Origin: a virus
Virus record (IMG/VR): IMGVR_UViG_3300032246_001270
DNA length: 64,000 bases
Direction: 5' to 3' (one strand)
In this document: piece after piece, positions 9,439-38,213 of the stretch
Layout: every line of letters begins with the position of its first letter
How positions within the stretch are numbered: the stretch's first letter is position 1
The notes under the pieces: model-generated
Databases searched by the model: none
What the model saw: only the letters and a program-made list of their open reading frames with translations
Told to the model about the DNA's origin: nothing
Position numbers and translations under genes: made by a program

Positions 9439-10596
9439 TTATAAGAATTTTTCTAACTCTTTTATAACCTCTTTGGATGATATTGATTTTGTACATTCAA
9501 ATTGTCTATCAGTTCCTTTATGGTCCGGACACCAATTCCAATCACCAGCATCCAATTTTAATCTATTAAAACAACCTTCACATTTTCCTTTTGGTGCTGT
9601 AATTCTTATACAATCTTTCATTTCTGCCCAATCGTATGAGAATCCACTAATTAAAACAGTTGGAACTTTTAAAGACCAACTTAACCAACTTAATCCACTA
9701 CCAATACCAATGAATGCTTTTGATTTTAACATTTCATCCATAACTCCTTCAATAGTTCCGTTTGGATGCTTTATAATACCTTTTGGTAATTTATTACCCA
9801 TATAATCATCACCTTCTTTTGATAATAATTTAACTGTATATCCTTTATTATTTAACCAATCAACTACATCCTGCCATCCAGTTGGATTATTCCAAAATTT
9901 AGATTGTGCAGTTCCAAATACAGCTATACAAACTTGTTTATTTTTTAAATCTATTTTTGGATTTCTTTTTTTAATTAAAGGTCTAATTTCTTCATAATTC
10001 AATCCTAAAATATCAGAACACATTTTTTGAAGTGTAACTGTTTTTGGGTCTATTGGATTTTTAAATAAATTAACAGTACTATCATCATTATAAAATAAAC
10101 CAATTGAATACATAGAGTATATATTATCTACACTTATACCAGGTGTAACAAATTCTATGTTTGGATACTGATTTTTAAACATATCATTCATAAATGTAGA
10201 TACTATCAATTTACAATTATGCTTTTTTCTAAATTCTTCAAAGTAAGGAAACCAAGCTAAAGAATCACCTAAAGCTCTTGAATCCATTGCTATATAAACT
10301 CTTTTGTTATTTGCATCATATAAATGTTGGCTCCATAATTTACCATCTTCATATATATTAATTTTCCACTCAACAAAATATTCTATACTACATTTACACC
10401 AACAATTATTTCCTATATTGCTTGAATAAATAATTTTTTCAGTTTTATTATCAATAAAATCAACTTTATAATTTCCTTGTTTACTTCCTTTTATTTCAAC
10501 AAAAGGTCCTCTAACAAAATGAATTATTGCTTTATTAGTAACCTCAACTATATTATTTTCATTCTTTTTTAAATTATCGTAAATCATTAACTCCAA
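9439..10596 (-). CDS. TibC/Aah-like (autotransporter O-heptosyltransferase family) GT-B glycosyltransferase
   Basis: LGDSLAWFPY, FIGIGSGLSWLSW, PTVLISGFS, and the four-Cys iron-finger pattern CEGCFN...WCPDH...QFECTKSI. Confidence 0.8.
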   Translation of the reverse strand: MELMIYDNLKKNENNIVEVTNKAIIHFVRGPFVEIKGSKQGNYKVDFIDNKTEKIIYSSNIGNNCWCKCSIEYFVEWKINIYEDGKLWSQHLYDANNKRVYIAMDSRALGDSLAWFPYFEEFRKKHNCKLIVSTFMNDMFKNQYPNIEFVTPGISVDNIYSMYSIGLFYNDDSTVNLFKNPIDPKTVTLQKMCSDILGLNYEEIRPLIKKRNPKIDLKNKQVCIAVFGTAQSKFWNNPTGWQDVVDWLNNKGYTVKLLSKEGDDYMGNKLPKGIIKHPNGTIEGVMDEMLKSKAFIGIGSGLSWLSWSLKVPTVLISGFSYDWAEMKDCIRITAPKGKCEGCFNRLKLDAGDWNWCPDHKGTDRQFECTKSISSKEVIKELEKFL

Positions 10597-12761
10597 GTTT
10601 TAACTGTTAAATCCAATAATGAATATCCTTCCGCTTGCTTACTATACATTTTATTTGTGGTATATCTTAGTCTTGGATAATTTGCAAATACATGATTATA
10701 CCAAAGGTCACCAACATCCCATCCACAATCTTTTAATCTATCCATCCACCATTGTTTTTCTCTATTTGGAATTAAATAACAATGTGCTAAATCTTGATTA
10801 GCTGCTGTTTTACTAAATAACTCATCTATTTTTTCTTTTTCTCTTGATGGGTTATTTGCAAATGAAATAAATGGAACTCCATCTCTTTCTGATATAAAAC
10901 ATGCTTTATGAACTATTTCAACAAATTCTTCTAAGCCGGTGTATATAAATGCATCTGCTTCAAATACCAAAGTGTAATCATAATTTTCAGTATCCATTGT
11001 TTCCAATGCCATTCTATGTGCTAAATAACATCCATAATGTCTACCGGTCATCCAACCCAAACCAGCACCAGGGTATAATTCTCCCGGCTTATTATCTTTA
11101 CTTATATGCTCAGGCCTTCTACAATTTTCAGCAGGTGCAAATCCCTCATATGGTGCATTTACAATCGGCTCATAATACATACCATATTTTTCTAATTGCT
11201 TAAGAGATTGAATAGATACTCTTTCTCTCATATCATCAGGTCTAGTCAACATATGCTTTATTTGGATACGTGGTTTAGTACGATACCAATTTCTAAATCC
11301 TCTATGAAATTGTTTATAAAAAAATTCATCAGCTGCCCGAGTAACACCGGGAAAGAAGCTTCCACCATAATCATCACCACTAATCCAACCACCGGGTTTA
11401 ATTTTATTATACCAATAGTTTATATCATCTCTAACATCTTCATATGAATGTCCAGCATCTAACATTATATAATCAATACTACCATTTGTAAATTGATTAG
11501 ATGCATTATGTGATGTATCTTTTATAATATCAATATTTCCGTAATTTCCAGAAAGTACTGTATTATCTATAAATTCATAGAATATATCCCCATTAAAACT
11601 ACCTACTATGTTTTGATGCAATTCTTCATCATCAGTTCCTTTAAATGTATCTATGGTAGTTAGTTTAATACTTTTTCCTGATTTTTTTATTTTAGTTGCT
11701 AAATAATTTGTAGACTTACCAAACCATGTACCTACTTCAACAAAGGTATCACCATCATTCGCTTTATCAACCATTTCATTATATAAATCTATATAAGAAA
11801 ACCAACCTGGTATTTCATTAAATTCAGGTTGTAATTTTTCTAATATAATTCTTTTAGTTAATTTTAAATCATCATTAATATAAGTTACCAAAGAGTTATT
11901 ATCATATGTATCTAAATATGTATGTAATTTTCTAAATATAGAAGGCATCTTATATGAAAGAGCTTCTTTAACTGATAATGGATTTAATTCTAACGTAGAT
12001 GAAAAATAGAACATATCACAAGCTGCATAAAATGTATCTACATCATTTCGTTCACCCCATATCATACAATTTTCAGGTTTGTGTTTCATTAAAGGTCCCC
12101 AATAATGTTCAAAATTTCCGGCTTGATTTCCTACAAAATGAAATTTAATTTTATACTTTTCTAATTGAGTTGCTATTGAAAATATTTCGGCTTGATTTTT
12201 ACCTGGTGCAAATAATCCAACATTTAGTACATGCTTCCATGTTGGGTCTAATTCCAATTCTTTTTGAGCAGATTCTTTATCAAATGTATATTCTTCAATT
12301 GGATATTCCCATACATCTAAAGGAACTCCAGTATCTTCAAATCTTTGTTTACTCCATTCGGATACTAAAACATATTTGTCAGGATGATAAACTATTTCGG
12401 ATGGATTGGTAAATGAACCATGCGTAGTTACTACTATAAAATAATTTCTTTGTTTTACAAAAATTTTATCTAATATATAAGTAGGTAAATCAAATTGTGG
12501 TATTTCGTGAAAATGAATTATATCAGGTTTAAAATTTTCTATAATAGAAATTATTTCCGATTTATCATTTCCCAAAGTATGTACAGGTACTAATGATTTA
12601 ATTCTATTCTTTTGTACTACAAAAGCATTACCACCACTGTTGTTTATTTCAACAACTTCAATTTCAAAATTTTTTATAAATTCTTTTACCTGCTTATATA
12701 GGTATTGTGGTTGCCCACCAGTAGACAAATGTGGTGCGACGTAAAGTAACTTTTTATTCAT
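10587..12761 (-). CDS. Tri-domain protein: GT4-like glycosyltransferase, class I SAM methyltransferase, GT25-like glycosyltransferase
   Basis: HLSTGGQ, PGKNQ and ELNPLSVKEALSY (GT4); VEVGTWFGKS, LDAGHSYE and KPGGWISGDDY (methyltransferase); GCYLAHR and LVFEADA (GT25-like). Confidence 0.8.
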   Translation of the reverse strand: MNKKLLYVAPHLSTGGQPQYLYKQVKEFIKNFEIEVVEINNSGGNAFVVQKNRIKSLVPVHTLGNDKSEIISIIENFKPDIIHFHEIPQFDLPTYILDKIFVKQRNYFIVVTTHGSFTNPSEIVYHPDKYVLVSEWSKQRFEDTGVPLDVWEYPIEEYTFDKESAQKELELDPTWKHVLNVGLFAPGKNQAEIFSIATQLEKYKIKFHFVGNQAGNFEHYWGPLMKHKPENCMIWGERNDVDTFYAACDMFYFSSTLELNPLSVKEALSYKMPSIFRKLHTYLDTYDNNSLVTYINDDLKLTKRIILEKLQPEFNEIPGWFSYIDLYNEMVDKANDGDTFVEVGTWFGKSTNYLATKIKKSGKSIKLTTIDTFKGTDDEELHQNIVGSFNGDIFYEFIDNTVLSGNYGNIDIIKDTSHNASNQFTNGSIDYIMLDAGHSYEDVRDDINYWYNKIKPGGWISGDDYGGSFFPGVTRAADEFFYKQFHRGFRNWYRTKPRIQIKHMLTRPDDMRERVSIQSLKQLEKYGMYYEPIVNAPYEGFAPAENCRRPEHISKDNKPGELYPGAGLGWMTGRHYGCYLAHRMALETMDTENYDYTLVFEADAFIYTGLEEFVEIVHKACFISERDGVPFISFANNPSREKEKIDELFSKTAANQDLAHCYLIPNREKQWWMDRLKDCGWDVGDLWYNHVFANYPRLRYTTNKMYSKQAEGYSLLDLTVKTWS

Positions 12762-12766
12762 TGTAA

Positions 12767-12798
12767 CAAATATACGAAATTATTTTGAAACTACCAAA
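12767..12798 (-). promoter_or_regulatory. Bacteroidota housekeeping-sigma promoter upstream of the glycosyltransferase operon
   Basis: Minus strand reads TTTG-GTAGTTTCAAAATAATTTCG-TATATTTG (20-nt spacer), 5 nt before the ATG at 12761. Confidence 0.8.
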
Positions 12799-13086
12799 TT
12801 ATTTTTCTTCTACATCAAAAATAACAGTACCCTCATTTAAATCAATTTCACCCTTTGGATATTTAATTTCTAATTCTTTTAAGAATGCATTTAATTCATC
12901 AGAATTTTTATCAAAATCCAATTCTAATCCTTCTTTAACACCTTCCAATCTTTTAATTTCTAAATTTAAATCTCTAGTTCTTACACTAATTTGACCAAAT
13001 GATATAATGATATCATTTGATTTTGCTTGAAATGTTTTTAATTTTTCAAGTTGTTCAGGTTGTAATTTTTCAATTTGTGTTGCCAT
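12799..13086 (-). CDS. Coiled-coil hypothetical protein, paralogue of 8956..9384
   Basis: Shared C-terminal KYP.G.I....GT motif; late motif at 13107-13114. Confidence 0.65.
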   Translation of the reverse strand: MATQIEKLQPEQLEKLKTFQAKSNDIIISFGQISVRTRDLNLEIKRLEGVKEGLELDFDKNSDELNAFLKELEIKYPKGEIDLNEGTVIFDVEEK

Positions 13087-13123: not shown

Positions 13124-13387
13124 TTAATTTCCGTAAGGAGAATCTCCTAAAATTTCAGAATTCCATGTAGATTTTAATTCATCCAATGTTGATATATTAG
13201 TTATATCAATATTAGTTGCATCTCTTAATGCTTGTTTAGTTGCTCCTATTTGTGCAGTTTTTTCAGAATCTCCTCTTTCTAAGGCTTTCATAAAATCAAC
13301 ATCAAGTGGTTTAAAAAGTTCCTCTCTTTTACTTCTTATTTTATTTTGATGTATTTCCAATGCTTTATTTAAATCAATTCGTATCAT
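13124..13387 (-). CDS. Tail fibre assembly chaperone-like protein
   Basis: IRSKREELFKPLDV...KQALRDAT...W pattern of tail-fibre chaperones. Start moved to ATG 13387 (MIRIDLNKA) to remove the overlap with the upstream gene. Confidence 0.6.
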   Translation of the reverse strand: MIRIDLNKALEIHQNKIRSKREELFKPLDVDFMKALERGDSEKTAQIGATKQALRDATNIDITNISTLDELKSTWNSEILGDSPYGN

Positions 13388-13391
13388 AATA

Positions 13392-13673
13392 TTAATAATT
13401 TTCAATATGTTGTGCATCTTCTAATGCCTTTCTATGCATTTCATCCATACCATAATCAGTTGGATTAGACCAATCTGGGTCATATGCAGTATGAAATACT
13501 TTATCATAATATTCATACTCAACTAATATAAATGGCCATCCAGCCGGTACAGTTCTTTTTGCTATCATTGTAGCTGTTTTAAAATCATCAGCAAAAATAC
13601 TTGTAGAACCTAACATTATTTTTGTTCCTAAACTTTGCTTACGAGAAGGAAATATACTTACATATCTTGCCAT
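13392..13673 (-). CDS. Hypothetical protein, probably tail-fibre associated
   Basis: 93 aa between the fibre and chaperone genes; IAKRTVPAGWPF and DWSNPTDYG. Confidence 0.55.
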   Translation of the reverse strand: MARYVSIFPSRKQSLGTKIMLGSTSIFADDFKTATMIAKRTVPAGWPFILVEYEYYDKVFHTAYDPDWSNPTDYGMDEMHRKALEDAQHIENY

Positions 13674-13685: not shown

Positions 13686-16600
13686 TTATTTATAAACTAA
13701 TATACCAATTCTACTACCACTGCTATCTTCACTATCTAATTCTATTTTAAAACTGGTAGCAAATGAATCAAACACTCTTACTAATTTTGGTATTGGGCCG
13801 GTTGCCGTTTCAGAACCTGATATTACTACACTATAAAATCCAAGGGGAGCAGTTGAGTTAAACCACGTTGATGAATCTTGCAATGCTTCTACAAAAAATA
13901 CCTGAAATGTATTGGTTGTTACATACGTTATTTTTTCTATATTCATACAATAAGGCCACCAATATTCGCTATAAGTACCTGAACAATTTGTTGTTGGGTC
14001 CGGTTCAAAAAATGCATATGCTCTTAAAATTTGATAAGCTCTATTATATCCTCCAAAGAAATAAGATGTCATAAAGTTACCTCCAGCTGCTCTATTAGAA
14101 CGAGGATATGATGCATTATTAATATAAATTCTTTGCATTGCATTATGCCACTCAATTGCATTTTGATTCAATAATAAAAATGTTCCACCAATATGTCCAA
14201 TTGTTCTTCTATCTTGAAATGAGCTATTTACATGTCCACCGGAGTTTGGAAAATCCGTAAGAGATAATGAAGATAAAAAATCTGGTCTAGTTAAAAAATA
14301 TCTATCAGTATCTTGTCCTACATTAATTCCAACCTGATTAAGTACTGTGGATGCTACCGATGCATTATAGGCAACATCAATATCAGGCATATAATAATCA
14401 ATAGTCATATAGTTATCATATTCCAAATTGTAAACTATATATTGAATACTAACCGTGTATGTTTGCCCAGCTATCATATTTACTCCAGACATATATAATA
14501 CTATATTAGTAGGAGGTGAACCAGGATTGATTTGTTCATAGAAATTACCGCCAAAATCCGCATCAAATACAGGAGTATCTACATACTCAGCTCCACCAAA
14601 TCCACTATATACACTGTTACCACCACTATCTCTTACATAAAGTCTCATATCCACATAAGGGCCGGAATGTTTTGTTCCACTTATCCAAGTAGTTTTTCTT
14701 AAAGAACTTACTGGAATTGTAAATGTTAATTCATAAGCTGCTGTTAATGGTGGAACTATATTATTATTAACATTCCATGTTGGTGAATATGGCCAATCGC
14801 CAGGAGAACCCGGAGGTGTAACACCACCGGGATATTGTAAATATCCATTAGGTCCTTGCCCTGTCAATGTACCATTTTGGTATGTTGCAGTTCCAGCAGC
14901 ATATCCTGTTATATGAATTGTTCCAGAGTTGTAGTTTAATGGGTCTGCGGTTGATGTAGTTCCATAATCTAATAATACTTTAGTTACATTATTTCCATCT
15001 TTTAAACGAATAATTCCAGATATAACTAAATCAGTATCATCCCAATAAAGATACTTACCACCAACAGTAGATGTTGCATCTCCTAATCTAAATTGTCCTA
15101 AGTTATTTAAAAAATATCCTTTCCCTGCTGATAGAGATGTTGCGTTTACACTTCTAATATATCCCGTATAACTTCCATCAGTACCAATAACCAAACCTCT
15201 AGTAATTGTTGCATCTTGCGCCAATAAAATATCAGTTGCTACTGAACTAAATGTTGCTCCAAAGGTTGACCAATCAGATACACCCGGAGTCCCCCAAGTT
15301 GCTGTTCCAGTTTTAGATGGATTGTTTACTAAATAGTATGCTCCAGTATATGCCGGATATCTAACTACATCTTTACGAGTTCCATCAGCTGTTTGAAAAT
15401 ATGCTGTTCCAGAATCATAATTTCCTCTAAATACTACGCCAGGACCAGGTGCACCATCGTTTCCATTATTACCATTAACACCCGATGTACCATTTGCTCC
15501 ATCAGCTCCGTTTTTACCGGATGTACCATTTGCTCCATCAGCTCCCGATGTACCATTTGCTCCGGGCGAACCAGCTGCTGCCGCAACAGTCCAAGGACCT
15601 GCGCCAGGATATCCTGTTGATGCGTTTGTATTATTTGTTGATGTATGTGAAGTTGTTGAAGTACATTGCCAACTTTGTCCTCCGTAAGTAGCAACATCAT
15701 TTGCGTAATAAACAGTTGATGATGCCCAAGCTCCTCTTAATGTTCCAGCGTTTTGACCGGGAGCAACTTGATTTATAGAACCAACAATTGTTAATGTGTT
15801 ACCATCCCATTTTAATGCTCTTTGCCCATCTGAAGATTTAATTGAAAATCTACCAGTTGTTCCGCTAGCACCATTTTCATAAATACCTAAAAATATACCT
15901 GGTCTATCATATCCAATAACTCCGGTAGATGTTTGGTCACCACTTGCTCCTTGAGTACCAGTCTGTCCCATAGCCATATATGGGTCATTACGTCCTCCAG
16001 CTAATACAATATTTGCAAATGCACCTGTTGTATCTTTTGTACCAATATTAATTGTGTTCTTTACATATGATTCATCAAATATTGCAATCTTAGCTGCTAC
16101 AAAAAATTCTTGAGTTCCTAAATATTGCCAATAATTATTATCTGATGTTGTTCCAGATGGTGCTTGTGCTCCAACTAAGTTACTACTCTTATTATAAGTT
16201 GCGGGGCCACTACCACTAATTGCTGCGTAATATGTTGTCGGATTTCCGTTAGGTGGATATATTACCGCATCCCTACGATAGTTTACAGTTTCAACACTTC
16301 CTATGTAATCTATTGTATTAGACCAATTGCCCCTCATTACAACACCAGGTCCTGTATTTCCTTCAAATTGAACTGCAAATGATTGAGTTTTATATAATTT
16401 TTCTCTTCCCTCACAATCTATTTCATAAACAACATATCCAGTTGTATATGTAGTTGGGTTTGACCAACTTACTAAATCGTATGTATATGCTAAATTATTT
16501 GCATCTACTGGTAATGTACTACCTACTACCAAACTACCACCTAAAGTAATATGAGAAGATTTATCAAATACTTTTACAAGTGATTTTTCTTTATATCCAG

Positions 16601-19600
16601 TATTGCCGTATGCATCAGTTTGTCCTCCACTAAATGATGATACACATAATAATTGAGTCCCACCTCTAGTTGGTTTAATTGTAGTAGAAGTATCAGTATA
16701 ACTCATTTGTCCAGATACTTTATAAACTAACGCAGATGCTTCGTTTGATAGTAATGCCGAATATGGTGCTGGTGCTGTAAATTGTACTGCTATTGATTGT
16801 GTTACAAATTGAGTTTGTCTACCACTTTCAAAATCTATTTTATAAACTATTTCTCCAGATGTATTTACTGCCGGATTTGTCCATGCAGTTATATTACCAA
16901 TTTCAGCAGGGTTTAATGCTGGGAATTTTGTACCAGCCATTGTAATCCAAGAAGACTTTGTAAATATGGATGCAGATGAATATCCTAATATACCAATTAA
17001 ATTATCTTGAAAATCATAATCAGTAGGATATGTTGGTGCTGGGTATGTTGTTACATTTATTAATTGTGTGGCTCCTTTAAATGTTGTAATTTTTTCTCCA
17101 GTTCCTGCAAATTGAGTTGTCCACAAATCTGCAGTAATTGATGTATTATCATTTGTTGAAACTAATTTATATGCATCAGCTCCAGCTTTAACACCGGCAA
17201 TAGTTAATTGACCAACTGCTCTTATATCAGAATCTTGTAAATTATAAAATATAGGAGCTTTACCATCAACTAATTTTGCTTTCCAAGTTTTTGTTTGACC
17301 TGGCCCAGCAGCATCTGCTCCAGTAATTCCGTATAATGTATATGTTGGTGGAACTCCTTCCATTGGATAAGGTCCATCATAAAAAGTTTCAGTGCCATCT
17401 GCTTCTACAAAGTAAAAATATACTTGAGGTCCATCAGTAATACCAGCAACATACGAACCAGTTGTATTAAATGCAGTTGCTGTTAAATCAATACCACCAT
17501 CAGGTGCAGTTTTATATCCATCTCTATTATAGTTTATAGTATATGTTGATGATTTTAAAGATATACTTCTAGCGTTTGGAGTTGATATATTTTTTGTTAT
17601 TACCTGAGTTCTGTTAAAAACAGATGAGGTATATTGATGACCAGGTCCTAATGAATATGGATAAGCAACTATATTATATAATACACTTGCTGTTGTATAT
17701 GGATGGTCAAATCTTTTAAAGTTTATAGTTGCAGTATCAAATGATGAAGATGATAAAGAACCAGTTTGAATATTACTTCCACTAATAGATAAGAATCTCC
17801 AAGTTCCAGGTGCTTTTGATTGTGTTGTAAATGTTAAATAATCGGCTCCTTCTTTTAATTTAATTGTTGTATTAATTGGTAGATATCCTGTTGTTGGGTC
17901 TATATAACCAACTTCATCGGAAATTAAAGTTTGTGTTAATGGCGATACAATAACTTCAACTTGCGGAGGTCCATCTAATATTTTTGTGTAATTTTGAGTA
18001 ATACTTGCAGTATAAATTGATGATGTATAATATGGATGTATTACTAAATTATATAAAATACTTCCACTTAAATCACTAAGTTTACTTGCATTTGAAAGTA
18101 ATAGAGAATCTGCATATGCACTACCTAAGTATGATGCATCAATAACACTACCTGTCATTATATTACTTCCCGTAATCCAAAATTTTGAATATATCCCATT
18201 TCCAGTAGATACCGATTGGGATGCTGTATAGAATGTACCATGTTCACTTTGTTGTTCAACACTTCCAGTAAATATTAAATAACGAGACCCCTGTTTTAAT
18301 CTAATTTGAGTTGCAGATTGGTCATAACTATTTACAACTCCTTTTGAATTTGCTTTTAAATTTACTGTTGATGGTGTTATTTCAAATATAATACTTTCAT
18401 CTCCAGGTTTTCCTTCTGGTACAATAGTAAACGTTTTATCAAAACTTACAGATGCAGATGTCCAAGGTTCAGTATATGTAAAAGTTAATGTTAAATTTTT
18501 ACTTTGTTGTAGTGGGCTTCTTACATTTGAATTTGTTGGGATTTCAGATGGTATAATAAGTTTATTATCATCAATACCCGTAACAGTTAATGTTGGGTCT
18601 AAACTTTGTGTATGATAATAAATCCAGTATTCAGGAACATAATCTTTATTAATTGACATTGATGGGTAAACCTGAAAAGATGATGTTATATATTCATTTT
18701 CTCCAGACACTGCTCTTTTTGCAAAAGATGCGGTTGCGTATCCAAACAAAGGTTTAAATTGTGTATCAGTTCTTGGATTTATAGTAAATGAATCTGCATT
18801 ATATGTTACCTTACCACTATCCAAACCATCTTGCAAATCTTCTAAAATAATTGTTGCTAAAACAGAAGATGATACCGCATATGCCCAATTAGATGCTGCA
18901 GAACTTGATGGCATCAAATAAAGTGTTCTTCTAAAATCAATTGAGTCTCTAGTAAAAATTGCGTTATAATCTATTTGTTTACTACCAATAGTACCAACAG
19001 TTAAACCTTTAATATAATTACTTTGAGTTACATAAGATAAATTTACAAACTTTTCAGGAGTTGAATAATCTACTGAACCTGTTTTTAAAATATGTAATTG
19101 TATATCAGAAAAATTCTTTACAGCTTGCTTACTTAATATAATATCATTAATACCATCAATTCTTACCGCCTGTATTTCTAATGATGCAGTACTACTATTT
19201 CTAATTTGAGTTCCTCTATAAGGTCTAATAATATGGTTTACTCCGCCAAATCCATCTAATACTTTATATATATTAATAGTATCGGTATATCCCTCAACCT
19301 CACCAGTCAATCTTACCAATTGTACATTTATATCGCTTCTAGAACCAGTAAAGTCTTGAACAGTCATATAAACATTTGCTGTTCCTATTCCATGTAATAA
19401 GCCAGGAAATTGTTGACCAGAACCAGTATATGATGATGATAAATTATTACCAAAGAAATCAAATGATTGTGATGTATAATGAACTGAACCGGTTAATAAA
19501 GTTTTTTGTTCATCAATTGTTATAACAGTTGGTGGTACTGGGTTTGAACCAGAATCAAATTGAAACCCTGCGGATGATGGTACTAACTTAAGTTGTTTTC

Positions 19601-26268: not shown

Positions 26269-26271
26269 TGA

Positions 26272-27501: not shown

Positions 27502-28746
27502 TTAGAATGATAATTTAACTTTAATTAATATTTCTTTATCAAAAGATTTAGCAATTGGTTGAGAAGTTTTAGCTACTGCAATCAATTCGTTTGCATCGTT
27601 TAATAAACCTATTGTTGTTACATAAGTGTATGGGTCAGTATTAAAAGATGTTTCACTAAAAGTTCCATCAGCATTTACATATGTAGGATTATTGGAATAA
27701 TTAAATTCTCTATTTGTTGCTCTTACAAAGAAATGTTGTGTATGAACATTTTCAGTTCTTCTTGCTTCAAAATCACCACCAGCTTTTATAGATTCAAATA
27801 ATCTAAAGTGATTAAATGCATCATAGTATGTATCTAAACTACCACTTAAATTACCCTTAAGAGTAAATGTATTTGTAGAGCCAGATGGGATGTATATGTT
27901 TTTATCAGGTAAGTTTCCTACTACGTTTCCTATTGCTTTAGCGTTAAGAATTATAATACCTCTATTTGGATAGAACATACCATATCCTTGTCCAGTTGGA
28001 GAATATCCTGCTTTTAAATCAGTAGCGGTATCTGCTGTATTTTTTGTTGTTGCGTCTGCTTGAGTTCCTAAATTTAATGAACCAGATACTACTTTAAATT
28101 CATTACCAGCTAATCCCAAATCATCACCAAATTTCTTACCACTATTATCAATGAATGTAAAGTAACCATTAGAACCAGAAAGTTTTAATGACCAGTTACC
28201 AGCATCCATCTTTTCTCTATATCTACTTCTAGCTATATTAATAATATAAATTTCATTACAATCAGTTGCAATTCCGTTTGAGTTATCAAATTGAAATTTA
28301 GATAATGTTGGGTCTAATAACATTGATTTATATTGAGCGTAGGTAGCTTTAGTTGCTAATAATGCGTTATCATTTTTTTCTAAAGTTATAGAACCACTAC
28401 CATCACTACTACCCCATGCTATAGCGAATTGAACTTCTTCACTATCAGTAAATCTTGGGTCAGCATTTAATGCGTTTACATAATAATATCCACTATTAGC
28501 TTCTGTTTGAATAGATGAAGAATATATATTAGTTAAAGAACCAGAATCATTACTCCATAATCCAGTTGTTACAACTTCAGTTTTTGCATTTACTTTATCA
28601 AATTCACCAAATCTTTTATAAATACCAATTTTAGCATCACCAGCAGCCGTACCAACCAATTGATTAAGTAATTCTGTTGTTAATGTGTTATTATTAATTG
28701 CGGTTTGAATTCGACCGGTTATATTAGGGTCTGTTATTTGTGCCAT
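27502..28746 (-). CDS. Virion baseplate/tail structural protein
   Basis: G..Y..RGIII, EFNYSNNP and YVTTIGLLNDANELIAVAKTSQPIAK shared with 26482..27423. Confidence 0.65.
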   Translation of the reverse strand: MAQITDPNITGRIQTAINNNTLTTELLNQLVGTAAGDAKIGIYKRFGEFDKVNAKTEVVTTGLWSNDSGSLTNIYSSSIQTEANSGYYYVNALNADPRFTDSEEVQFAIAWGSSDGSGSITLEKNDNALLATKATYAQYKSMLLDPTLSKFQFDNSNGIATDCNEIYIINIARSRYREKMDAGNWSLKLSGSNGYFTFIDNSGKKFGDDLGLAGNEFKVVSGSLNLGTQADATTKNTADTATDLKAGYSPTGQGYGMFYPNRGIIILNAKAIGNVVGNLPDKNIYIPSGSTNTFTLKGNLSGSLDTYYDAFNHFRLFESIKAGGDFEARRTENVHTQHFFVRATNREFNYSNNPTYVNADGTFSETSFNTDPYTYVTTIGLLNDANELIAVAKTSQPIAKSFDKEILIKVKLSF

Positions 28747-29445: not shown

Positions 29446-32400
29446 TTAATCAACCTCAAGAATTGGTTCTCCACTACCTCTACCAGTCTTAGCCACTCTA
29501 AGGATGTTAGGATTAGTAGTAAATGTTTCAACTGGGTCTAATCCATCAGGTGTAGTTGCTGCAGATTGTAATGAACCCTTCCAAAATGAACGAGTCATAC
29601 CTTCAGATAAGTTATTTACATATCTATAATGTGTTGGTAAGTATCCATTTACAGACTCTACTGAAACAATATTATTTCCTATTGCTACGCTACCACTCCA
29701 AGATTGAGAAGAAACTTTATATTTGTATTTTGTAACAGGAATATTTGTATATCTAACTTGACTTCCAGATAATGCGCCATTCACAGGGTATCCATCTATT
29801 TGTGTTGATATTTTTTGAACATATTGTTCTTTTACCAAAAATACACTTTTTCTACTTCCAGTTTGTTGATAATTTCCAAATAATGTTTCTAATTCTCTTA
29901 CTACGGCAGTTCCATTTTTTGCATATAACCCATATCCTGCATTTGCTAAAGAATCCTTTTCCATACCAATTGCTTGAAAACTAAATGCATCAACTTCAAT
30001 AACTATATTACTTCCTGTATTAGTTGCCTGTAAAAATGTTTCATACATTGGTAAATTACCTTCTAATTTAGTATTATCATTTGCATTAATTTGAGTATCA
30101 TAATTTGAATTAGTTCCATTCAAATAATATATTTCTTGTGCATCAATTAATCCTTCTTCATTACTAATATTGCTTGTAAGTGTTGTTACTTCTTGTGCAT
30201 CTATATATGCATCTTCAGAAATTGAATCTAATTCTAATACAAAATGTTCATTATAATCAATTAGAGTATTATAATCTTCGTGCTCTGCAATAGGTCTATC
30301 CCAACGAGTTTTACTTCTTTCTAAATAGTGAGGTTCAATTAATAATCCTTTAGATACATTTGCTCTAGCCGGTGCTAAATCTGCAAGCACTTCAAACAAT
30401 GATTTATCAATGTATTTTATTAATCTGATATATTCATAAATATCCCTACCATTCATTCTTTCAAAATAGTAATGTCTTAAAGTATCTAATTCAGAATAAT
30501 GTTCTTTATATTCATCTCCAAAATCACCAATATAATCATCTATATTAAATTGTCCAAATGTTTTTAAGATATCCATGTTTAACTCCTTAATTGGAGAGAA
30601 AAATAATCCTAATCTATTTGTATCAATTGGAGCTCTATCAAATGATTTTTTAGTTGCTCTTTGTTTATAAGAAAGGTCACTAATTAATGTTTGCTCTTCA
30701 AATCTTATTTTATTTGAATATGTTAATCCTAAAGATGGTACATGTGCTGTTACAGTTCTATCATATGGTATATACTGATATGGGTAGTGTGATGCTGAAT
30801 ACATATTATTTGCATATCCATAATCTTCTCCATAGTTATCCGATACCGATACATTTTTAATTCCGTAATTTTCAGTTTTTGTTCTATCTTTTGGATATTC
30901 AAAATCTAAACGGAATAATAAATCTTTTGTCGATGAATCATAATCATTACCATTAGTTGCATCAGGAAATAAAGTATGATTTTCAAATTTACTCCTTTGC
31001 AAAGGTACACTCCATAATCTAACTTCATCCAAAGTTCCCTCATATCCATTTCCACCAATTTGTAAAAATGAACCAGTTTCCCATTGAGTATCAGTAGTTT
31101 GAAGTGACATACTCACCGATGTTATAATTCTATGGCCATCTGTTGTATTTAACCAAACTTCAAACCAAGAAGATGAATCAGGATTATTGTGTCTATTAAT
31201 TGCAACTTGTGAATAATATTCATTAGATATTGGAAAATCCAAACTACCTGTTTTTAAATCAGGTCCATATGCATATGGTTCATTATTTATATAAGATATA
31301 TAATATGTTGCGGGAATACTAACATTTTCATCAAAATATGTATTTGTTGATGCATCACCACCAAAGTTTAATTCTAATTTACCAAAAGAACCAGTAGTTT
31401 GTATTAAATCCAAACTCCATTCACTACCACTTATTAAACTATAAGATGTATTTGGTAATGTTGATGGAAGTATTCTAAATTCAACACAATCCGGATAGCT
31501 TGCACTTCCTGTATTGTATTTCCAAGGTACTTTAATATTTGAACTTCCGTTTGCATTTAAACTACCATTTAAATAAATTGCAGCTGTTCTATCATCAAAT
31601 GTAAATTGAGAAACTGCATCAGTTGTTGGGTCTTGAGGTCCACCAAATTCCATTATAGTCAACATAGATTGTGGTACTCCGTAACAAGCCATTATAGCTT
31701 TCATACTTCTAGCAGTACCTTTATGTTTTAATAGATAAGGTAAATTATTTAATATTCTTCTCCAAACTTCATTGTTTGCATCAGCCAATGGCATTGAATA
31801 TTTTTGAGTACCATCTTTATAAGTACCAAATGCATATTCCCAAAGTAATTCTGAATTAAATGCTCTTTTTGCATCCCAACCAAATGATTCTAATAGTGTA
31901 TGAACTAAGTTATTTGAAAATCCTTTTACTTGTTTATGTTCTAATACTTTAGTTTTTGATAAATTAGCTATATACGCCCATACTATATCAAAGTGTTGGC
32001 CTATCATATCTAAAAATACTAAGAAATCATTATTGTTATAATCTTCTTTTATAAATTCAGGTATATTATTTACCAAATAATCAGGGTTGTATTTATCATA
32101 TTCAGCTGCTAAATCTATTAAAGAATTATACCAAGCTACAACATCATTATTTGTTGATATTTTTAAAGTATAAGTAGCAAGTCCAGATATTGGATTTATA
32201 TATAATTCTTTTGGATATGCTAAATCATTTGTTGATTTATATAAAAAGTTTTCAAATCCATCCAATGATTTAACTAGTCCATTTATTGTATCTGATAATT
32301 TTTTTATTTCATTTAATTGAGGAGTTCCTTTATATTGTATAATTTCCCAATCAATATCAAATAAACCATCTTCAGTTTGTACTTGATATCCATCTTCTGT

Positions 32401-34710
32401 TAATACACCACCATTATAGTTTTCATATTTTGGAGTAAATGTAGTTGCTACTAAACCATCTAATCTTGTTTTATAATTTTCTAATAATTGTATTTTATAA
32501 AAGAAATTATTAACTCTTTCTTCAGCTGAACCAAAGTGTGAAAAATTTTCAAATGTATATACTGAGCCACTTACATATTGTATATTTAATTTTGTGGTAT
32601 CTATTCCATTTGTTGATAAATAATTGGTAACTAAATCATTTGATGTTATTGAACCACTAGCAATTAAATCATCATATACTTGATATGCAATACCGCTACT
32701 TTGGTCTAATGTAAAGTTAGGTCCTTTTAATGGATGGCAATACATTGAATCAATACCATTAATAGTTATTGTTTCAACGATTGGATTTGCTTGTAATTTA
32801 GAAATCCAAACTTGTTGATTTGGTTGTACAGCCGTATCTAATGGTTCGTATAGTTTTAATATTAACGAACCTTCACTACCAACCCAAGTTGTTATTACTT
32901 TATTATCACCATTACCTAAATGTAATAAATGTGTAAGATATTTAGAAGTTTCATCCGCAAATATACTAGTATCGAATTGGTCTATAAATCCATCTGCTAT
33001 TCTACTAACTGCTACATCTCTTGGTATTGTTAATTTACCTTTATTAAATTTAATATCTATTAATTCCTCTTTACCAACCACAACTTCCCTACCACTTTCG
33101 TTATAAGGAACTAATTTTAATGTTAAAGTTATTGTATCTGCATTTTGTGGTGCAGATACTCCACCTATATTTAAAAGACTTTGAAAATTTAAACTAACTA
33201 TACCCGATTTAGTTGCTTTTATAAATTGGTCAGTACCTAATTTATAAATTTTAACATAATCAGTATTTACTGATTCATAACTTATTCCAAAATCTACATT
33301 AGTTCCAACAAAATCCGGACCATTTAATATAGATGGATATGTTATGTTTCTAATATCAGGAACACCAACATAAATGTCATCAATAGCATCTATTGTTAAT
33401 TCAGTTATACTACCATCACCATCTGTATTTGAAGGTACTAATTTAACTTTATAATTTCCTATTCTATTGAATACTCTAGCAGGTATTGTAGCTATAAAAT
33501 TTGAATCAGTAATAGCATCTAAGTTACTAAATGTAAATTTTTCATTATTTATATATAAAGTAATTCTTGATGTATTTTGTGATTTACTTAATCCAATTGG
33601 TACATCTGCTTTTGAATTTATATTGTAAAGTCTTTTTGTTTCTTGGTTAATTAAAGATAAAGCTGGTGTATTTAATACTTTTGAAATAAATGGTTCTGAT
33701 GTTATATCTATTAAATAATTTTTTCCATCTATACTTAACTTTGTAGATACACTTTCTAAATTAGTTTGTGCATTTATTTGATTAGAATCATACCCATCCG
33801 CATTAACTTTTATATTTGTAATTCTAAATTTGGATATAGTTGATGATTGTATATTAATAGTACTACCTAATTGTAATAATATTGTATTATCACCTTTAGT
33901 TAAATTTATACTTTCATTAGTACCATCTACTTTTTTTACATTTAATATAACAGAACTATCTTCTCCATTTAAATTTACTGATAGTTTATTTGTTGTATCA
34001 ACTGGAGGGTCTGGTTTAATTACTTCTTTATTTAATGTAAAATTTAAAGCATCATCAAAAGAAAGAACATCTTTCTGCTCATATCCGTTTGCGTAATGTT
34101 TTATATTAATTTTATAATATGATTTTGTAGAATATACAGGTGAATCTTTTGTAAAAGTAGGATACCCAGTTAACCAACTTTGTCCCAATCCACTAACTCC
34201 AGTATTACCCGACATACCACCAAACAAAGATGACATTGGATTGAAATTTCCTAAATAGTTTTGTAAATCAATCTCAAATTCTTCATTTTTGGTTAAAGAT
34301 ATTATATATGTATCATTTGTTGTATATCCAATTTTTTGTAAAGATATTTTTTTATCACCATTTAATAAAAGTTCACCTATTGTTACATCAAGTGTAGTTG
34401 GTGTTGATTTTTGTGTATTTTCATCATTAACATAAACATATGCACTTGGTATATCTGATTTTATTACTATTGTATGTTTTTGATTTGATAGTGCTGTATT
34501 TGGTTGGTTTGTTAATACTACACTACTCCCACCACCTATCGTAATAGCACCAGTACCACCATTTTGCCCTTGGTATCCACCACCTGCAATTGGATAATTA
34601 TGAATATCATTTTGGATATCATTAATAAAACCACCAATTCCATTATTTAATTGGATGGATTCGTTTATTCCAAAATTATTATCAAACATTATATCATCTA
34701 GTGCTTTCAT
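29446..34710 (-). CDS. Large baseplate wedge protein (P2 gpI-like domain + LamG-like domain)
   Basis: WRRILNNLPYLLKHKGTARSMKAIMACYG (gpI-like); GTLDEVRLWSVPL (LamG-like); lies in the baseplate block. Confidence 0.7.
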   Translation of the reverse strand: MKALDDIMFDNNFGINESIQLNNGIGGFINDIQNDIHNYPIAGGGYQGQNGGTGAITIGGGSSVVLTNQPNTALSNQKHTIVIKSDIPSAYVYVNDENTQKSTPTTLDVTIGELLLNGDKKISLQKIGYTTNDTYIISLTKNEEFEIDLQNYLGNFNPMSSLFGGMSGNTGVSGLGQSWLTGYPTFTKDSPVYSTKSYYKINIKHYANGYEQKDVLSFDDALNFTLNKEVIKPDPPVDTTNKLSVNLNGEDSSVILNVKKVDGTNESINLTKGDNTILLQLGSTINIQSSTISKFRITNIKVNADGYDSNQINAQTNLESVSTKLSIDGKNYLIDITSEPFISKVLNTPALSLINQETKRLYNINSKADVPIGLSKSQNTSRITLYINNEKFTFSNLDAITDSNFIATIPARVFNRIGNYKVKLVPSNTDGDGSITELTIDAIDDIYVGVPDIRNITYPSILNGPDFVGTNVDFGISYESVNTDYVKIYKLGTDQFIKATKSGIVSLNFQSLLNIGGVSAPQNADTITLTLKLVPYNESGREVVVGKEELIDIKFNKGKLTIPRDVAVSRIADGFIDQFDTSIFADETSKYLTHLLHLGNGDNKVITTWVGSEGSLILKLYEPLDTAVQPNQQVWISKLQANPIVETITINGIDSMYCHPLKGPNFTLDQSSGIAYQVYDDLIASGSITSNDLVTNYLSTNGIDTTKLNIQYVSGSVYTFENFSHFGSAEERVNNFFYKIQLLENYKTRLDGLVATTFTPKYENYNGGVLTEDGYQVQTEDGLFDIDWEIIQYKGTPQLNEIKKLSDTINGLVKSLDGFENFLYKSTNDLAYPKELYINPISGLATYTLKISTNNDVVAWYNSLIDLAAEYDKYNPDYLVNNIPEFIKEDYNNNDFLVFLDMIGQHFDIVWAYIANLSKTKVLEHKQVKGFSNNLVHTLLESFGWDAKRAFNSELLWEYAFGTYKDGTQKYSMPLADANNEVWRRILNNLPYLLKHKGTARSMKAIMACYGVPQSMLTIMEFGGPQDPTTDAVSQFTFDDRTAAIYLNGSLNANGSSNIKVPWKYNTGSASYPDCVEFRILPSTLPNTSYSLISGSEWSLDLIQTTGSFGKLELNFGGDASTNTYFDENVSIPATYYISYINNEPYAYGPDLKTGSLDFPISNEYYSQVAINRHNNPDSSSWFEVWLNTTDGHRIITSVSMSLQTTDTQWETGSFLQIGGNGYEGTLDEVRLWSVPLQRSKFENHTLFPDATNGNDYDSSTKDLLFRLDFEYPKDRTKTENYGIKNVSVSDNYGEDYGYANNMYSASHYPYQYIPYDRTVTAHVPSLGLTYSNKIRFEEQTLISDLSYKQRATKKSFDRAPIDTNRLGLFFSPIKELNMDILKTFGQFNIDDYIGDFGDEYKEHYSELDTLRHYYFERMNGRDIYEYIRLIKYIDKSLFEVLADLAPARANVSKGLLIEPHYLERSKTRWDRPIAEHEDYNTLIDYNEHFVLELDSISEDAYIDAQEVTTLTSNISNEEGLIDAQEIYYLNGTNSNYDTQINANDNTKLEGNLPMYETFLQATNTGSNIVIEVDAFSFQAIGMEKDSLANAGYGLYAKNGTAVVRELETLFGNYQQTGSRKSVFLVKEQYVQKISTQIDGYPVNGALSGSQVRYTNIPVTKYKYKVSSQSWSGSVAIGNNIVSVESVNGYLPTHYRYVNNLSEGMTRSFWKGSLQSAATTPDGLDPVETFTTNPNILRVAKTGRGSGEPILEVD

Positions 34711-34730
34711 TACTTTATAAGTATTTTATA

Positions 34731-36047: not shown

Positions 36048-36049
36048 TT

Positions 36050-37138: not shown

Positions 37139-37139
37139 C

Positions 37140-38213
37140 TTATTTATTTACTATACTAAATGTCATTTCTTCATCAAAATATTGAATATCTTCATCACCC
37201 ATATCAACTTTAAATTCTATTTTATAAACTCTTCCAGCTTCCCAATTTGAAAAATTTAGTTTTATATAATTTCCATCGGAATCACAACTAATTTTAGAGT
37301 ATTCGCTAAATGGAATTATAATATCATCCGAAGCAAAATCTTTTATTTGATAATATGAGTTTTTAGGTAAATATTTTTGAGATGTATATGCAAATGTATT
37401 TGTAAATGTTTTTAAAGGATATAATTCTCTTCCAAAAATTCTTAATTTTGCAATACTTCCTAATTTATATTCTTTTTTAGGATTATTTACACCAACTTTA
37501 ATATCAGTTGCAGTTAATGGAGATAAAGATGCAGTTGCAAATGTTTGGTCATCCCAACCTATTCTAATTTTTGGTTGATATATAGTATTTGTTTCTTTAC
37601 TAAAAACTTTTATAATACCATAGTCTTGAGTATCTACTTCATTATCAATTGAATGTCTTAATATAATACCATCATTAGGAATTGAACCACTCATCCAAGC
37701 TATTAATAATGATTTAACATTCATATTAATATCGGCGGTTTGATAATCAAATGATTGATTTGCTTCATAATTAGTCCACCAAGTCCCACCAACTCCATTA
37801 TTTATACTAGCTGTTGTATATGAATTAAAATTATTTTGTAACCATTCTTGCTTGCTATCACCCTCTCTATAATTCCAAGTTACTCCAGCAGTTGATACAT
37901 TATCAAATCGAGTACCAATACCCATTTCCCAACTTCCTGAAATTGGATTTGCGTATATTGTATATTTTAAAGGAAGCTCTTCACTTTTAGTTTCTCTTAA
38001 AACTAAAGTTGCATCATCCATAGATATTGATGTATTTACTAAAGATGCTGAAAGGTATCCAATATCAAATTTAAGTAAAGCATGAGATACATCTTTTACA
38101 TTACCATAATATATTTTGCTTATTTCTAATATCTCATCTAAACCAGTATTTTGATTTGGTTGTTGAAGATATACCGTTGCATCTTTTGATGCTGTTAAAA
38201 AATAGTATGCCAT
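37140..38213 (-). CDS. Putative virion protein with DNRLRE/CBM96-like domain
   Basis: ASKDATVY...PNQNTG, LLKFD, W.SGSIPNDGIIL and FSKE...PK. Confidence 0.55.
   Translation of the reverse strand: MAYYFLTASKDATVYLQQPNQNTGLDEILEISKIYYGNVKDVSHALLKFDIGYLSASLVNTSISMDDATLVLRETKSEELPLKYTIYANPISGSWEMGIGTRFDNVSTAGVTWNYREGDSKQEWLQNNFNSYTTASINNGVGGTWWTNYEANQSFDYQTADINMNVKSLLIAWMSGSIPNDGIILRHSIDNEVDTQDYGIIKVFSKETNTIYQPKIRIGWDDQTFATASLSPLTATDIKVGVNNPKKEYKLGSIAKLRIFGRELYPLKTFTNTFAYTSQKYLPKNSYYQIKDFASDDIIIPFSEYSKISCDSDGNYIKLNFSNWEAGRVYKIEFKVDMGDEDIQYFDEEMTFSIVNK

Follow-up and report, generated by a model that had tools for sequence, protein, structure and literature searches.

The stretch of DNA analysed here, called the window below, comprises 64,000 nucleotides of a large uncultured phage, the host of which is probably a member of the Bacteroidota. 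In a judgement evenly poised between acceptance and doubt, the window appears to hold two separable things: a glycosylation cassette linked to a giant tail fibre (9439-12761) and an older, wider serine tag, [ST][GAQS]S. The basis for the cassette is the BAHT membership of one of its enzymes, the intact catalytic Asp and iron finger of that enzyme, the GT4 and methyltransferase domains of the other, synteny, and a promoter match. The tag is a real, Ser-specific linear motif on the outer tail proteins, where it occupies conserved positions.

The cassette behind the giant fibre gene

The cassette and its surroundings contain the following features:

8956-9384, minus strand: 142-aa protein (p142), after the BAHT gene; no family match
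9439-10596, minus strand: BAHT-family (TibC/Aah-type) protein Ser O-glycosyltransferase, 385 aa; matches to TIGR04414 and TibC 4rap
10587-12761, minus strand: three-domain enzyme, 724 aa; Pfam and ESM Atlas matches
12767-12798, minus strand: match to a promoter of the Bacteroidota type, TTTG-N20-TAnnTTTG, its end 6 nt upstream of the GT fusion gene's start
12799-13086, minus strand: small ORF, 95 aa, immediately 5' of the enzyme genes; weak DUF6965 match
13124-13417, minus strand: small ORF, 97 aa; phrog_20196
13392-13673, minus strand: unassigned ORF of 93 aa, 3' of the fibre gene; no family match
13686-21269, minus strand: giant tail fibre, 2527 aa; 43 tag sites vs 14.7 expected
15438-15572, minus strand: collagen-like Gly-x-y stretch, fibre aa 1900-1944, with three G-T-S triplets; weak Pfam Collagen match
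16209-20603, minus strand: tag-rich fibre shaft, aa 223-1687; 41 of the 43 fibre tag sites

By its score against TIGR04414 (293.8 bits; cut-off 200) and its match to TibC (4rap; E 2.6e-55, residues 40-378), the product of 9439-10596 is a genuine TibC/Aah-family enzyme, as had been proposed from the sequence alone. The heptosyltransferase I model reached 23.8 bits, far below its cut-off of 185. Across 33 distinct orthologues, residues Asp111, Thr229, Lys233, Trp304 and Cys339/342/356/368 never vary, and the enzyme retains the catalytic Asp and the four-Cys iron finger, which mediates substrate binding in TibC (PMC4358343). In the alignment, the sugar-binding Arg-286 of TibC is replaced by Val and its stereoselectivity residue Pro-300 by Gly, which makes donor sugar and stereochemistry uncertain. 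A gene for heptose activation or the ADP-heptose pathway was not found within the window.

The BAHT gene overlaps by 10 nt with the end of the GT fusion gene. The fusion consists of a GT4 domain (approximately aa 5-315; PF00534, 37.2 bits), a TylF/Methyltransf_24-type O-methyltransferase (approximately 336-482; PF13578, 69.2 bits) and a GT25-like domain (approximately 500-724). The first two exceed the Pfam cut-offs, while the third stays below (PF01755, 18.3 bits; cut-off 24) and leads in the ESM Atlas to viral GT25 clusters (score 0.94); the earlier description of a GT4-methyltransferase-GT25 fusion is upheld with that shading. Near-identical copies of the promoter are located before the primase gene (25620-25651) and before 61621, and the seven matches in the window, against 2.9 by chance, form a marginal excess.

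Both enzyme genes lie directly 3' of the fibre gene, as the sequence-only reading had stated, and the order fibre, cassette, TerL is conserved in 80 related IMG/VR contigs, which are largely one tight clade (TerL 82-96% identical) and not 80 independent events. Wherever a contig reaches, the order is fibre, small ORF, GT fusion, BAHT, p142, NMNAT-like gene and TerL. Homologues of the GT fusion and of 12799-13086 are each present in 79 of the 80 loci, those of p142 in 77, of 13124-13417 in 11 and of 13392-13673 in just two; this last ORF, labelled a chaperone in the sequence-only reading, matches no family. A nucleotidyltransferase assignment for p142 was rejected: the HxGH motif is absent from its sequence.

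The fibre opens with an N-terminal attachment region, residues 27-173 matching the Mel-JY01 and LR756508 fibres, continues with the tag-rich shaft and closes with a C-terminal third of about 800 aa that is poor in the tag. Homologues were found in 53 of the 80 loci, that is, wherever the locus extends far enough upstream, and all 38 long ones are rich in the tag (z 3-11 for the tripeptide, 6-19 when a following hydrophobic residue is included). The AF2 model of aa 560-1290 consists of beta structure throughout, with tag sites scattered over strands and coils, and suggests, with moderate confidence (pLDDT 70), beta-sandwich-like domains rather than a beta-helix. To our knowledge, the BAHT partners known so far are autotransporter beta-helices only, and this dissimilarity of the shaft model speaks against the cassette view. 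So does the collagen-like stretch, which accompanies BAHTs in other phages but is short here, being seen in about half of the fibre orthologues of the clade and missing from the others. In favour of the cassette view, a GT4-BAHT fusion adjoins a collagen-repeat protein of G-[TS]-S triplets in the megaphage LR756501.

The closest described systems are TibC-TibA and Aah-AIDA-I of E. coli (TIGR04414; PDB 4RAP/4RB4; PMC4358343), whose enzymes are bacterial autotransporter heptosyltransferases (BAHT) and with which the window's enzyme is homologous over its full length (residues 40-378), sharing the catalytic Asp, the Thr/Lys/Trp sugar-site residues and the iron finger. Its gene adjoins that of a very large, beta-rich, surface-exposed protein, as tibC adjoins tibA. 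It differs in being phage-encoded, in having a tail fibre and not an autotransporter as its neighbour, in the two substitutions given above, and in being coupled to a GT4-MT-GT25 fusion that is absent from TibC and Aah. Freeman et al., a study cited indirectly in PMC11256854, are said to have reported in 2023 that mycobacteriophage-encoded glycosyltransferases glycosylate virions. The likeness lies in phage enzymes shown or supposed to add O-glycans, within the cytoplasm, to structural proteins of the same phage; the enzyme families, however, are unlike those of the cassette, and the targets are Ser/Thr-rich C-terminal extensions of capsid or tail-tube proteins, whereas the candidate targets in the window are folded outer tail proteins with a short ordered tag and the giant fibre.

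The cassette probably glycosylates the adjacent fibre. A host-type promoter of its own would drive transcription immediately 3' of the fibre gene, and its enzymes would modify the fibre, or else another virion protein, while this is still in the cytoplasm and unassembled. A first sugar, which need not be heptose, would be attached to Ser by the BAHT enzyme, to be extended and methylated by the fusion. That anything is modified, on which substrate and with which sugar, is what we infer from the genes; heptose as the sugar, its extension and its methyl-capping are likewise inference only.

A serine tag on the outer tail proteins

Occurrences of [ST][GAQS]S were compared with composition-preserving shuffles, made over the whole protein or within 30-residue blocks. 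Four proteins in addition to the fibre carry the tag:

26482-27423, minus strand: tail protein, 313 aa; 7 tag sites vs 1.0 expected
27502-28746, minus strand: tail protein, 414 aa; 7 tag sites vs 1.6 expected, six of them SGS
29446-34710, minus strand: tail/baseplate protein, 1754 aa; 15 tag sites vs 5.8 expected
37140-38213, minus strand: baseplate-peripheral protein p357; 6 tag sites vs 1.2 expected

In the five proteins together, 78 sites were found where about 25 were expected (z about 12), and 52 against 8.6 when the tag is followed by a hydrophobic residue (z 15). The same shuffles gave no enrichment of [ST][GAQS]T (29 vs 27) or of NxS/T. When all exact tripeptides were ranked in an unbiased scan, SGS came first (23 vs 3.6) and TGS second (17 vs 3.9). 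A recount in the fibre (TGS 10, SGS 7, TAS 7, TQS 5), in 29446-34710 (TGS 6, SGS 5), in p357 (SGS 2, TAS 3), in 26482-27423 (SGS 3; TGS, TAS and TQS one each) and in the 414-aa protein showed the earlier by-eye counts to be essentially exact. The near-absence from non-peripheral proteins was confirmed as well, with no site in the portal, TerL or gp25 and one each in Mre11-Rad50 and gp6. The overuse is real, favours peripheral tail proteins and is under selection. A sixth candidate, 47502-49067, was discarded since its apparent match is a mere poly-Ser/Pro linker.

The 78 sites derive from 55 different 9-mers with ordinary Ser codon usage, and the signal therefore acts at the protein level. BLASTP showed that the five proteins are not paralogues of each other; weak similarity was noted between 26482-27423 and the 414-aa protein. 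In its extended form the tag reads [aromatic]-hydrophobic-[S/T]-[G/A/S/Q]-S-hydrophobic and is Ser-specific at position 3. The aromatic residue enriched at -2 places aromatic, Ser/Thr and Ser on one strand face. Among 39 fibre orthologues, Ser at position 3 is conserved at 0.84, compared to 0.45 for other Ser residues (p 1.6e-10), and it is replaced by Thr in 3.7% of cases as opposed to 9.4% elsewhere. At 50% identity the p357 family divides into 1299 clusters; of 84 diverse representatives, 88% are enriched for the tag, and four sites are retained in 60-87% of them and lie within conserved blocks that contain Trp, Gly and Asp. The protein itself is predicted to fold into two beta-sandwich domains (AF2, pLDDT 93), the first of which resembles carbohydrate-binding modules (chondroitin- and alginate-binding CBMs in Foldseek, TM 0.6-0.7 on target). 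The motif does not mark one structural element; in two AlphaFold models it occurs in strands, coils and helix ends alike.

Tag and glycosyltransferases across relatives

The closest cultured relatives are Flavobacterium phage vB_FspM_immuto (NC_055915) and Microcystis phage Mel-JY01 (PP395634), with TerL 55-58% identical, equal tail-gene order and the same tail families tagged. Mel-JY01 keeps the gene order, albeit with all cassette enzyme domains fused into one 1226-aa protein. Immuto differs in having no BAHT, GT4-MT-GT25 or giant fibre at this locus, while its glycan genes form an island of their own, 10 kb or longer; neither enzyme was found in a search of its whole genome, and its tag is as strong as or stronger than that of the window's phage. 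The tag is also strong in contigs G002-G005, which lack both enzymes; G002 is 80% complete, and the fibres of G003-G005 are orthologous to the window's fibre. BAHT-free enrichment was seen in eleven diverse loci too, and homologues of 29446-34710 in 11 diverse relatives are likewise tag-rich. In homologues of LR756508, a distant 484-kb relative, the tag is weak, and it is absent from the fibres and baseplate proteins of T4.

The sequence-only reading had taken the motif to be the sequon of these enzymes and expected the two to co-occur. Instead, the tag is equally or more enriched in the same protein families of BAHT-free phages and is therefore not BAHT's own signal. That reading had also named relatives with the motif but no glycosyltransferases as evidence against it; every tag-bearing relative inspected has some glycosyltransferase set, although BAHT-free relatives exist, and so a looser version, with the tag as acceptor for some phage glycosylation system, may hold. 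In G003-G005, the slot downstream of the fibre is filled by another sugar cassette (two GT7-LamG proteins, one GT2-like protein, a Methyltransf_24, a radical SAM enzyme and an epimerase), and fibre genes here are thus repeatedly followed by varying GT families, in favour of the view of a fibre-linked cassette.

Two GT4-like genes form a conserved pair that occurs in immuto, G002, Mel-JY01 and the two closer relatives L237 and L254; LR756508 has a single member. The pair was not found in the window, in G003 or in G001 (136 kb, of the window's clade, 67% complete); the window's 174,609-bp contig gave no match among the 120 best homologues. No similarity of the pair to known protein O-glycosyltransferases was detected in NCBIfam or Pfam.

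Competing readings of tag and cassette

It is quite possible, if somewhat short of an even call, that the tag is unmodified and is a structural or ligand-contact feature, such as a surface for host polysaccharide or a Ser/Thr hydrogen-bond motif, with the neighbouring enzymes unrelated. Its independence of BAHT, the positional conservation within the Trp/Gly/Asp blocks of p357, the CBM-like fold of that protein and the shared strand face are consistent with this, and a tag conserved in such blocks agrees equally well with a structural or ligand-binding role and with a modification site. However, the tag recurs in five unrelated proteins and in varied secondary-structure contexts, and it is largely missing from distant homologues with the same folds and from T4; the folds therefore do not need it.

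More tentatively, the tag may serve as acceptor for another phage glycosylation system shared by the group, e.g., the GT4-like pair, with the BAHT cassette as an add-on for the fibre. All tag-bearing relatives inspected have glycosyltransferases, the pair occurs in the five phages named above, LR756508 combines one member with a weak tag, and T4 has neither; moreover, the tag acts like a linear signal in that it is Ser-specific, accepts several residues at position 2 and occurs whatever the secondary structure. Against this stand the failure to find the pair in G001, the window and G003 and, among the 120 best homologues, in the window's contig, the pair's lack of similarity to known protein O-glycosyltransferases, a small sample confounded by phylogeny, and a conservation of 60-87% at 35-50% identity, which would be unusually stable for glycosites.

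Modification of the host envelope by the cassette (lipopolysaccharide core, capsule or a host surface protein), for instance to block superinfection, seems unlikely. Enzymes of the GT9, GT4 and GT25 families are familiar above all as makers of lipopolysaccharide, and a host-type promoter like that of the primase gene suggests early or middle expression, but the enzyme clears the BAHT equivalog cut-off by a wide margin and falls well short of that for heptosyltransferase I, the iron finger is kept, and the post-fibre position is conserved, even with a different GT cassette in relatives.

Very improbable, and largely refuted by its distribution, is the tag as sequon of the TibC-like enzyme, with heptosylation at many sites on all tagged proteins and extension and methyl-capping by the fusion: Ser specificity at position 3 matches the Ser-specific BAHTs (PMC4358343), the tagged proteins are peripheral and the most-tagged by count, the fibre, adjoins the enzyme genes, but the tag is equal or stronger in immuto and G002-G005 and enriched across the p357 family, is not restricted to strand-loop-strand contexts, and does not match the mapped TibA acceptor serines QN-S-GG and NT-S-AAV (PMC4358343).

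In the favoured reading, of a fibre-linked cassette and a separate tag, the tag predates the cassette, is far wider in its distribution and is therefore not the private sequon of BAHT. Either it would serve as acceptor for a further phage glycosylation system common to the group, or it would be an unmodified feature of the outer tail proteins with a structural or binding role.

The enzyme cassette after the fibre gene

The giant fibre gene is followed by a cassette of two enzyme genes that overlap by 10 nt:

9439-10596, minus strand: 385-aa TibC/Aah-type enzyme (BAHT)
10587-12761, minus strand: 724-aa fusion of GT4, O-methyltransferase and GT25-like domains (GT fusion)
13686-21269, minus strand: 2527-aa fibre

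BAHTs are the TibC/Aah autotransporter strand-loop-strand O-heptosyltransferases, which form a dodecameric ring and transfer heptose from ADP-heptose to Ser residues. They act on an autotransporter beta-helix whose gene adjoins their own; the neighbour here differs in being a phage fibre, the shaft of which is modelled as beta-sandwich-like domains, and no autotransporter domain was found in it. The reading of 9439-10596 as TibC/Aah-like, made earlier from the sequence alone, was borne out by a TIGR04414 score of 293.8 bits (curated equivalog cut-off 200; profile positions 26-373 of 374) and by an alignment of residues 40-378 with TibC (4rap; E 2.6e-55). The catalytic base, sugar site and iron finger of TibC were taken as defined in PMC4358343. 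The catalytic base Asp-110 aligns, within an LGD motif, with Asp111, which is invariant in 33 distinct orthologues, and the column was confirmed by the D110A crystal variant 4rb4. Equally invariant in the 33 orthologues are Cys339, 342, 356 and 368, aligned with the four cysteines of the 1Fe-0S iron finger (TibC Cys-339, 342, 358 and 370), and the conserved counterparts of the sugar-binding residues Thr-226, Lys-230 and Trp-305. TibC Arg-286 aligns with Val285, shared by all 33 orthologues, and Pro-300, on which stereoselectivity depends, aligns with Gly, both as placed by a pairwise HMMER alignment only. The N-terminal flattened beta-barrel (TibC_1st, PF21129) scored 17.9 bits, below its cut-off of 27, and the alignment with TibC begins at residue 40. 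As judged from its sequence, the enzyme is a true member of the BAHT family; family membership does not fix the donor sugar, given the apparent changes of Arg-286 to Val and Pro-300 to Gly.

The same early reading of the second gene as a GT4-methyltransferase-GT25 fusion stood for its first two parts. The GT4 domain (PF00534, residues 162-296; 37.2 bits, gathering cut-off 26.4) and the methyltransferase (PF13578, Methyltransf_24; 69.2 bits, cut-off 26.3) were both recovered, the TylF profile giving 20.8 bits, under its own cut-off. The C-terminal domain stayed below threshold (PF01755, 18.3 bits, cut-off 24) and had no PDB sequence match; its nearest named ESM Atlas clusters are viral GT25 (score 0.94), and GT25-like is to be taken as a lead. 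No heptose-activation gene was found within the 64-kb window. Two neighbours were rejected as candidates: the 1128-aa cytidylyltransferase-like protein is an orthologue of the NadR-type NMN adenylyltransferase of Flavobacterium phage vB_FspM_immuto (NC_055915; immuto below) and belongs to the core genome, so that it is not an ADP-heptose enzyme, and the 142-aa protein (p142, 8956-9384) has neither a family match nor the HxGH motif of an HldC-type adenylyltransferase.

The window is the final 64 kb of a 174,609-bp ENA metagenome contig, scaffold_13 of ERZ28593826, and has about 30% G+C, with every gene on the minus strand in the order portal, TerL, the long NMN-adenylyltransferase-like protein, the two enzyme genes, three small ORFs and the fibre, followed by a fused Mre11-Rad50, a primase, a tail/baseplate run, gp6- and gp25-like wedge proteins and more tail genes. 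Mre11 (SbcD-like) and Rad50 (SbcC-like) form one 1047-aa protein (21524-24667, minus strand), which is two separate ORFs in the 484-kb phage LR756508; a terminator-like hairpin (21476-21504) stands between this gene and that of the fibre. Precomputed Pfam matches of the source contig give a PA14 (carbohydrate-binding) domain in a 638-aa protein (55824-57740, minus strand) and a cupin with a weak peptide-deformylase-like match close to the contig end (62163-63293, minus strand). By TerL identity, the nearest cultured relatives are immuto (57.6%) and Mel-JY01 (55%). The latter is a Microcystis phage according to its deposit (PP395634.1); its gene order and sequence are close to those of immuto and this Bacteroidota-type group. 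Three near-identical matches to a Bacteroidota-type promoter (TTTGGTA..TTC...GTATATTTG) are located between genes, on the coding strand:

12767-12798, minus strand: directly 5' of the GT fusion gene, ending 6 nt before it
25620-25651, minus strand: directly 5' of the primase gene
61648-61679, minus strand: directly 5' of the ORF ending at 61621

These matches suggest a Bacteroidota host and, as the cassette and the primase gene have like promoters, also suggest that the cassette shares an early or middle expression class.

The BAHT has close relatives in IMG/VR, at least 128 in number, and 80 loci were kept for comparison of gene order. As far as the contigs extend, the order fibre, 95-aa ORF, GT fusion, BAHT, p142, NMNAT-like protein, p227 and TerL is constant in these loci; TerL is 82-96% identical among them, which points to one clade and not to many independent events. 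Mel-JY01 has a matching arrangement, but with all enzyme domains fused in one 1226-aa protein. The linear record of Mel-JY01 breaks off within the fibre gene, which has no annotation in it (ORF at L005 47737-50001). The megaphages LR756501 and LR756504 encode BAHTs too, that of LR756501 being fused to a GT4 domain and adjoining a collagen-repeat protein built of G-[TS]-S triplets. A short collagen-like stretch with G-T-S triplets lies at aa 1900-1944 of the window's fibre, but such a stretch is missing from about half of the fibres in the clade. No BAHT is present in the whole 160 kb of immuto. In three BAHT-free relatives (contigs G003-G005), the slot after the fibre gene holds two GT7 (beta-4-galactosyltransferase-like) enzymes fused to Laminin_G_3/ConA-like lectin domains, a GT2-like protein, a Methyltransf_24 of the same kind as the window's, a radical SAM protein and an NAD-dependent sugar epimerase:

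L181:1-12761 (G003; also L182 and L183): alternative sugar cassette after the fibre gene

A 717-aa BACON-domain protein also encoded there is depleted of the tag described below (2 observed, 9.2 expected). The window's cassette is most plausibly a protein-glycosylation module linked to the fibre, because it holds a true BAHT, keeps its placement after the fibre gene and has other transferases in its place in relatives. No paper on a phage-encoded BAHT was found in the literature.

A serine-specific tag on outer tail proteins

A short tag, [ST][GAQS]S, often followed by a hydrophobic residue, is over-used in the fibre and in four further proteins:

26482-27423, minus strand: 313-aa tail protein
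27502-28746, minus strand: 414-aa tail protein (p414-like in relatives)
29446-34710, minus strand: large tail protein (p1754-like in relatives)
37140-38213, minus strand: p357, encoded right after gp6

The tripeptide counts of the sequence-only reading held on recount, and the comparison with shuffled controls that it had proposed gave 78 tags in the five proteins for about 25 expected (z about 12; whole-protein and 30-residue-block shuffles), or 52 for 8.6 (z 15) when the hydrophobic residue was included. With Thr in the third position there was no enrichment (29 observed, 27 expected), nor were NxS/T sequons enriched. In an unbiased scan of all tripeptides SGS ranked first and TGS second. 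The flanks are also distinctive: position -2 is aromatic in 33% (background 12%), position -1 hydrophobic in 52% (34%; aliphatic 37% against 22%) and position +3 hydrophobic in 67% (34%). The sites comprise 55 distinct 9-mers with Ser codon usage as in the background, which eliminates a DNA-level signal, and BLASTP among the five proteins gave one weak match, between the 313-aa and the 414-aa protein, which eliminates duplicated domains or paralogy. Diverse 9-mers, ordinary codons and non-paralogous carriers together indicate that the tag was selected at the protein level and arose repeatedly. A sixth candidate (47502-49067, minus strand; 521 aa, no family match), Pro-rich and then with a poly-Ser linker at about aa 170-225, was rejected since its excess lies in the poly-Ser/Pro linker only. 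Disordered Ser-rich linkers are the kind of segment that is glycosylated in mycobacteriophages.

The tag is not a generic property of tail fibres, as T4 gp34-38, gp8-12 and wac show no excess of it. That the motifs might be beta-turns, which the earlier reading had named as damaging to its proposal, did not agree with the predicted models. In that of p357 (pLDDT 93) the sites fall in one strand, one helix end and loops, and in that of fibre aa 560-1290 (moderate, pLDDT 70) 13 of 31 are in strands and 17 in coil, the strand fraction (42%) equalling the background (41%); the tag therefore does not mark one structural element. In the more distant LR756508 the homologues of the tagged proteins carry little or no tag, so the folds do not require it. 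The model of p357 contains, with high confidence, two beta-sandwich domains, the first of which resembles chondroitin-/alginate-binding carbohydrate-binding modules, and p357 is on this ground likely a polysaccharide-recognising baseplate protein. By the same resemblance an aromatic-plus-hydroxyl binding surface stays a fair alternative for the tag. An unmodified structural or binding signature is a serious contender, somewhat short of probable. The tag also displays the excess over chance, the selectivity for exposed proteins and the hydroxyl-residue conservation that characterize a sequon. No paper on this tag was found in the literature.

The tag and glycosyltransferases in relatives

In immuto, which lacks both cassette enzymes, the tag is stronger than in the window: the 1053-aa tail spike has 61 sites for 22 expected, and 50 for 5.8 with the following hydrophobic residue, and the orthologues of the window's tagged proteins are likewise tagged. 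Among 11 diverse loci with p357 homologues (37-60% identical to the window's), the p357-, p1754- and p414-like proteins carry the tag, unlike those resembling gp6, p362 and p438; four of these loci lie on long BAHT-free contigs (G002, 171 kb and 80% complete, and G003-G005). The fibres of G003-G005, with N-termini 53-61% identical to the window's, are tagged as well. The p357 family comprises 1299 clusters at 50% identity, and 88% of 84 representatives are tag-enriched, with four sites kept in 60-87%. Across 39 orthologues of the fibre, conservation is 0.84 for the Ser at position 3 and 0.45 for other Ser (p 1.6e-10); the position-3 Ser also changes to Thr more rarely than other Ser, and position 2 varies among G/A/S/Q/R/H. 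The presence of the tag in BAHT-free relatives and its conservation in the p357 family imply that it predates the cassette, is far more widespread and cannot be the private sequon of the BAHT, as the sequence-only reading had proposed; the co-occurrence of tag and transferase for which that reading asked failed in immuto and G002-G005. The tag is a separate, group-wide feature.

Glycosyltransferase genes are common throughout this phage group, and another phage glycosylation system might instead write the tag. One candidate is a conserved pair of adjacent GT4-like genes (GT pair) that encodes proteins of about 480 and 430 aa and stands at the head of a glycan gene island in immuto, G002, Mel-JY01, L237 and L254:

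L094:7173-16001 (immuto, 49-58 kb): GT pair, heading a glycan gene island
L186:2125-4863 (G002): GT pair
L237:8579-11260: GT pair

The island in immuto extends over at least 10 kb and holds, besides the pair, GT2, aminotransferases, a methyltransferase and an epimerase; G002 has the pair and four GT2 genes. The two genes are also adjacent in Mel-JY01, where the first is broken by TGA, and in L237 and L254, closer relatives of the window, where they directly follow the homologue of 47502-49067. For the second member, the protein collection yields 8000 or more homologues at E <= 1e-30, and the weakly tagged LR756508 has only one member. Neither the window nor G001, a contig of 136 kb from the same clade, contains the pair; about 26 kb at the start of the window's contig have no counterpart in either of them, and none of the top 120 homologues found for the nearest GT-B came from that 174,609-bp contig. 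Identification of the immuto pair as GtfA/GtfB-like serine-rich-repeat glycosyltransferases had no support in NCBIfam or Pfam. That the tag is the acceptor of another phage glycosylation system is possible, on the doubtful side.

Significance for the phage group

In the broadest form of the modified reading, put forward tentatively and on present evidence rather unlikely, the tag would be a true O-glycosylation code common to thousands of aquatic T4-like Bacteroidota phages. Phage transferases would write it on outer tail proteins, and interchangeable fibre-side cassettes (BAHT with GT4-methyltransferase-GT25 here, GT7-lectin elsewhere) would give lineage-specific glycan coats. To our knowledge, phage-encoded virion glycosylation has been proven experimentally in a few systems only, and we know of BAHT-type enzymes otherwise only from adhesin glycosylation in bacterial pathogens. 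The region offers a phage copy of such an enzyme, which keeps a fixed place beside a giant fibre gene in a phage group that is abundant in the environment, together with a short, statistically very strong, Ser-specific tag that is confined to outward-facing tail proteins. As there are cultured relatives with (Mel-JY01) and without (immuto) the BAHT, the question can be put to a direct test by mass spectrometry of virions. A modified tag would define a sequon, and with it a virion glycan coat of wide occurrence, and would bear on host recognition, particle stability and phage engineering; an unmodified one would be a structural or binding signature conserved in a very large baseplate protein family, still wanting an explanation.
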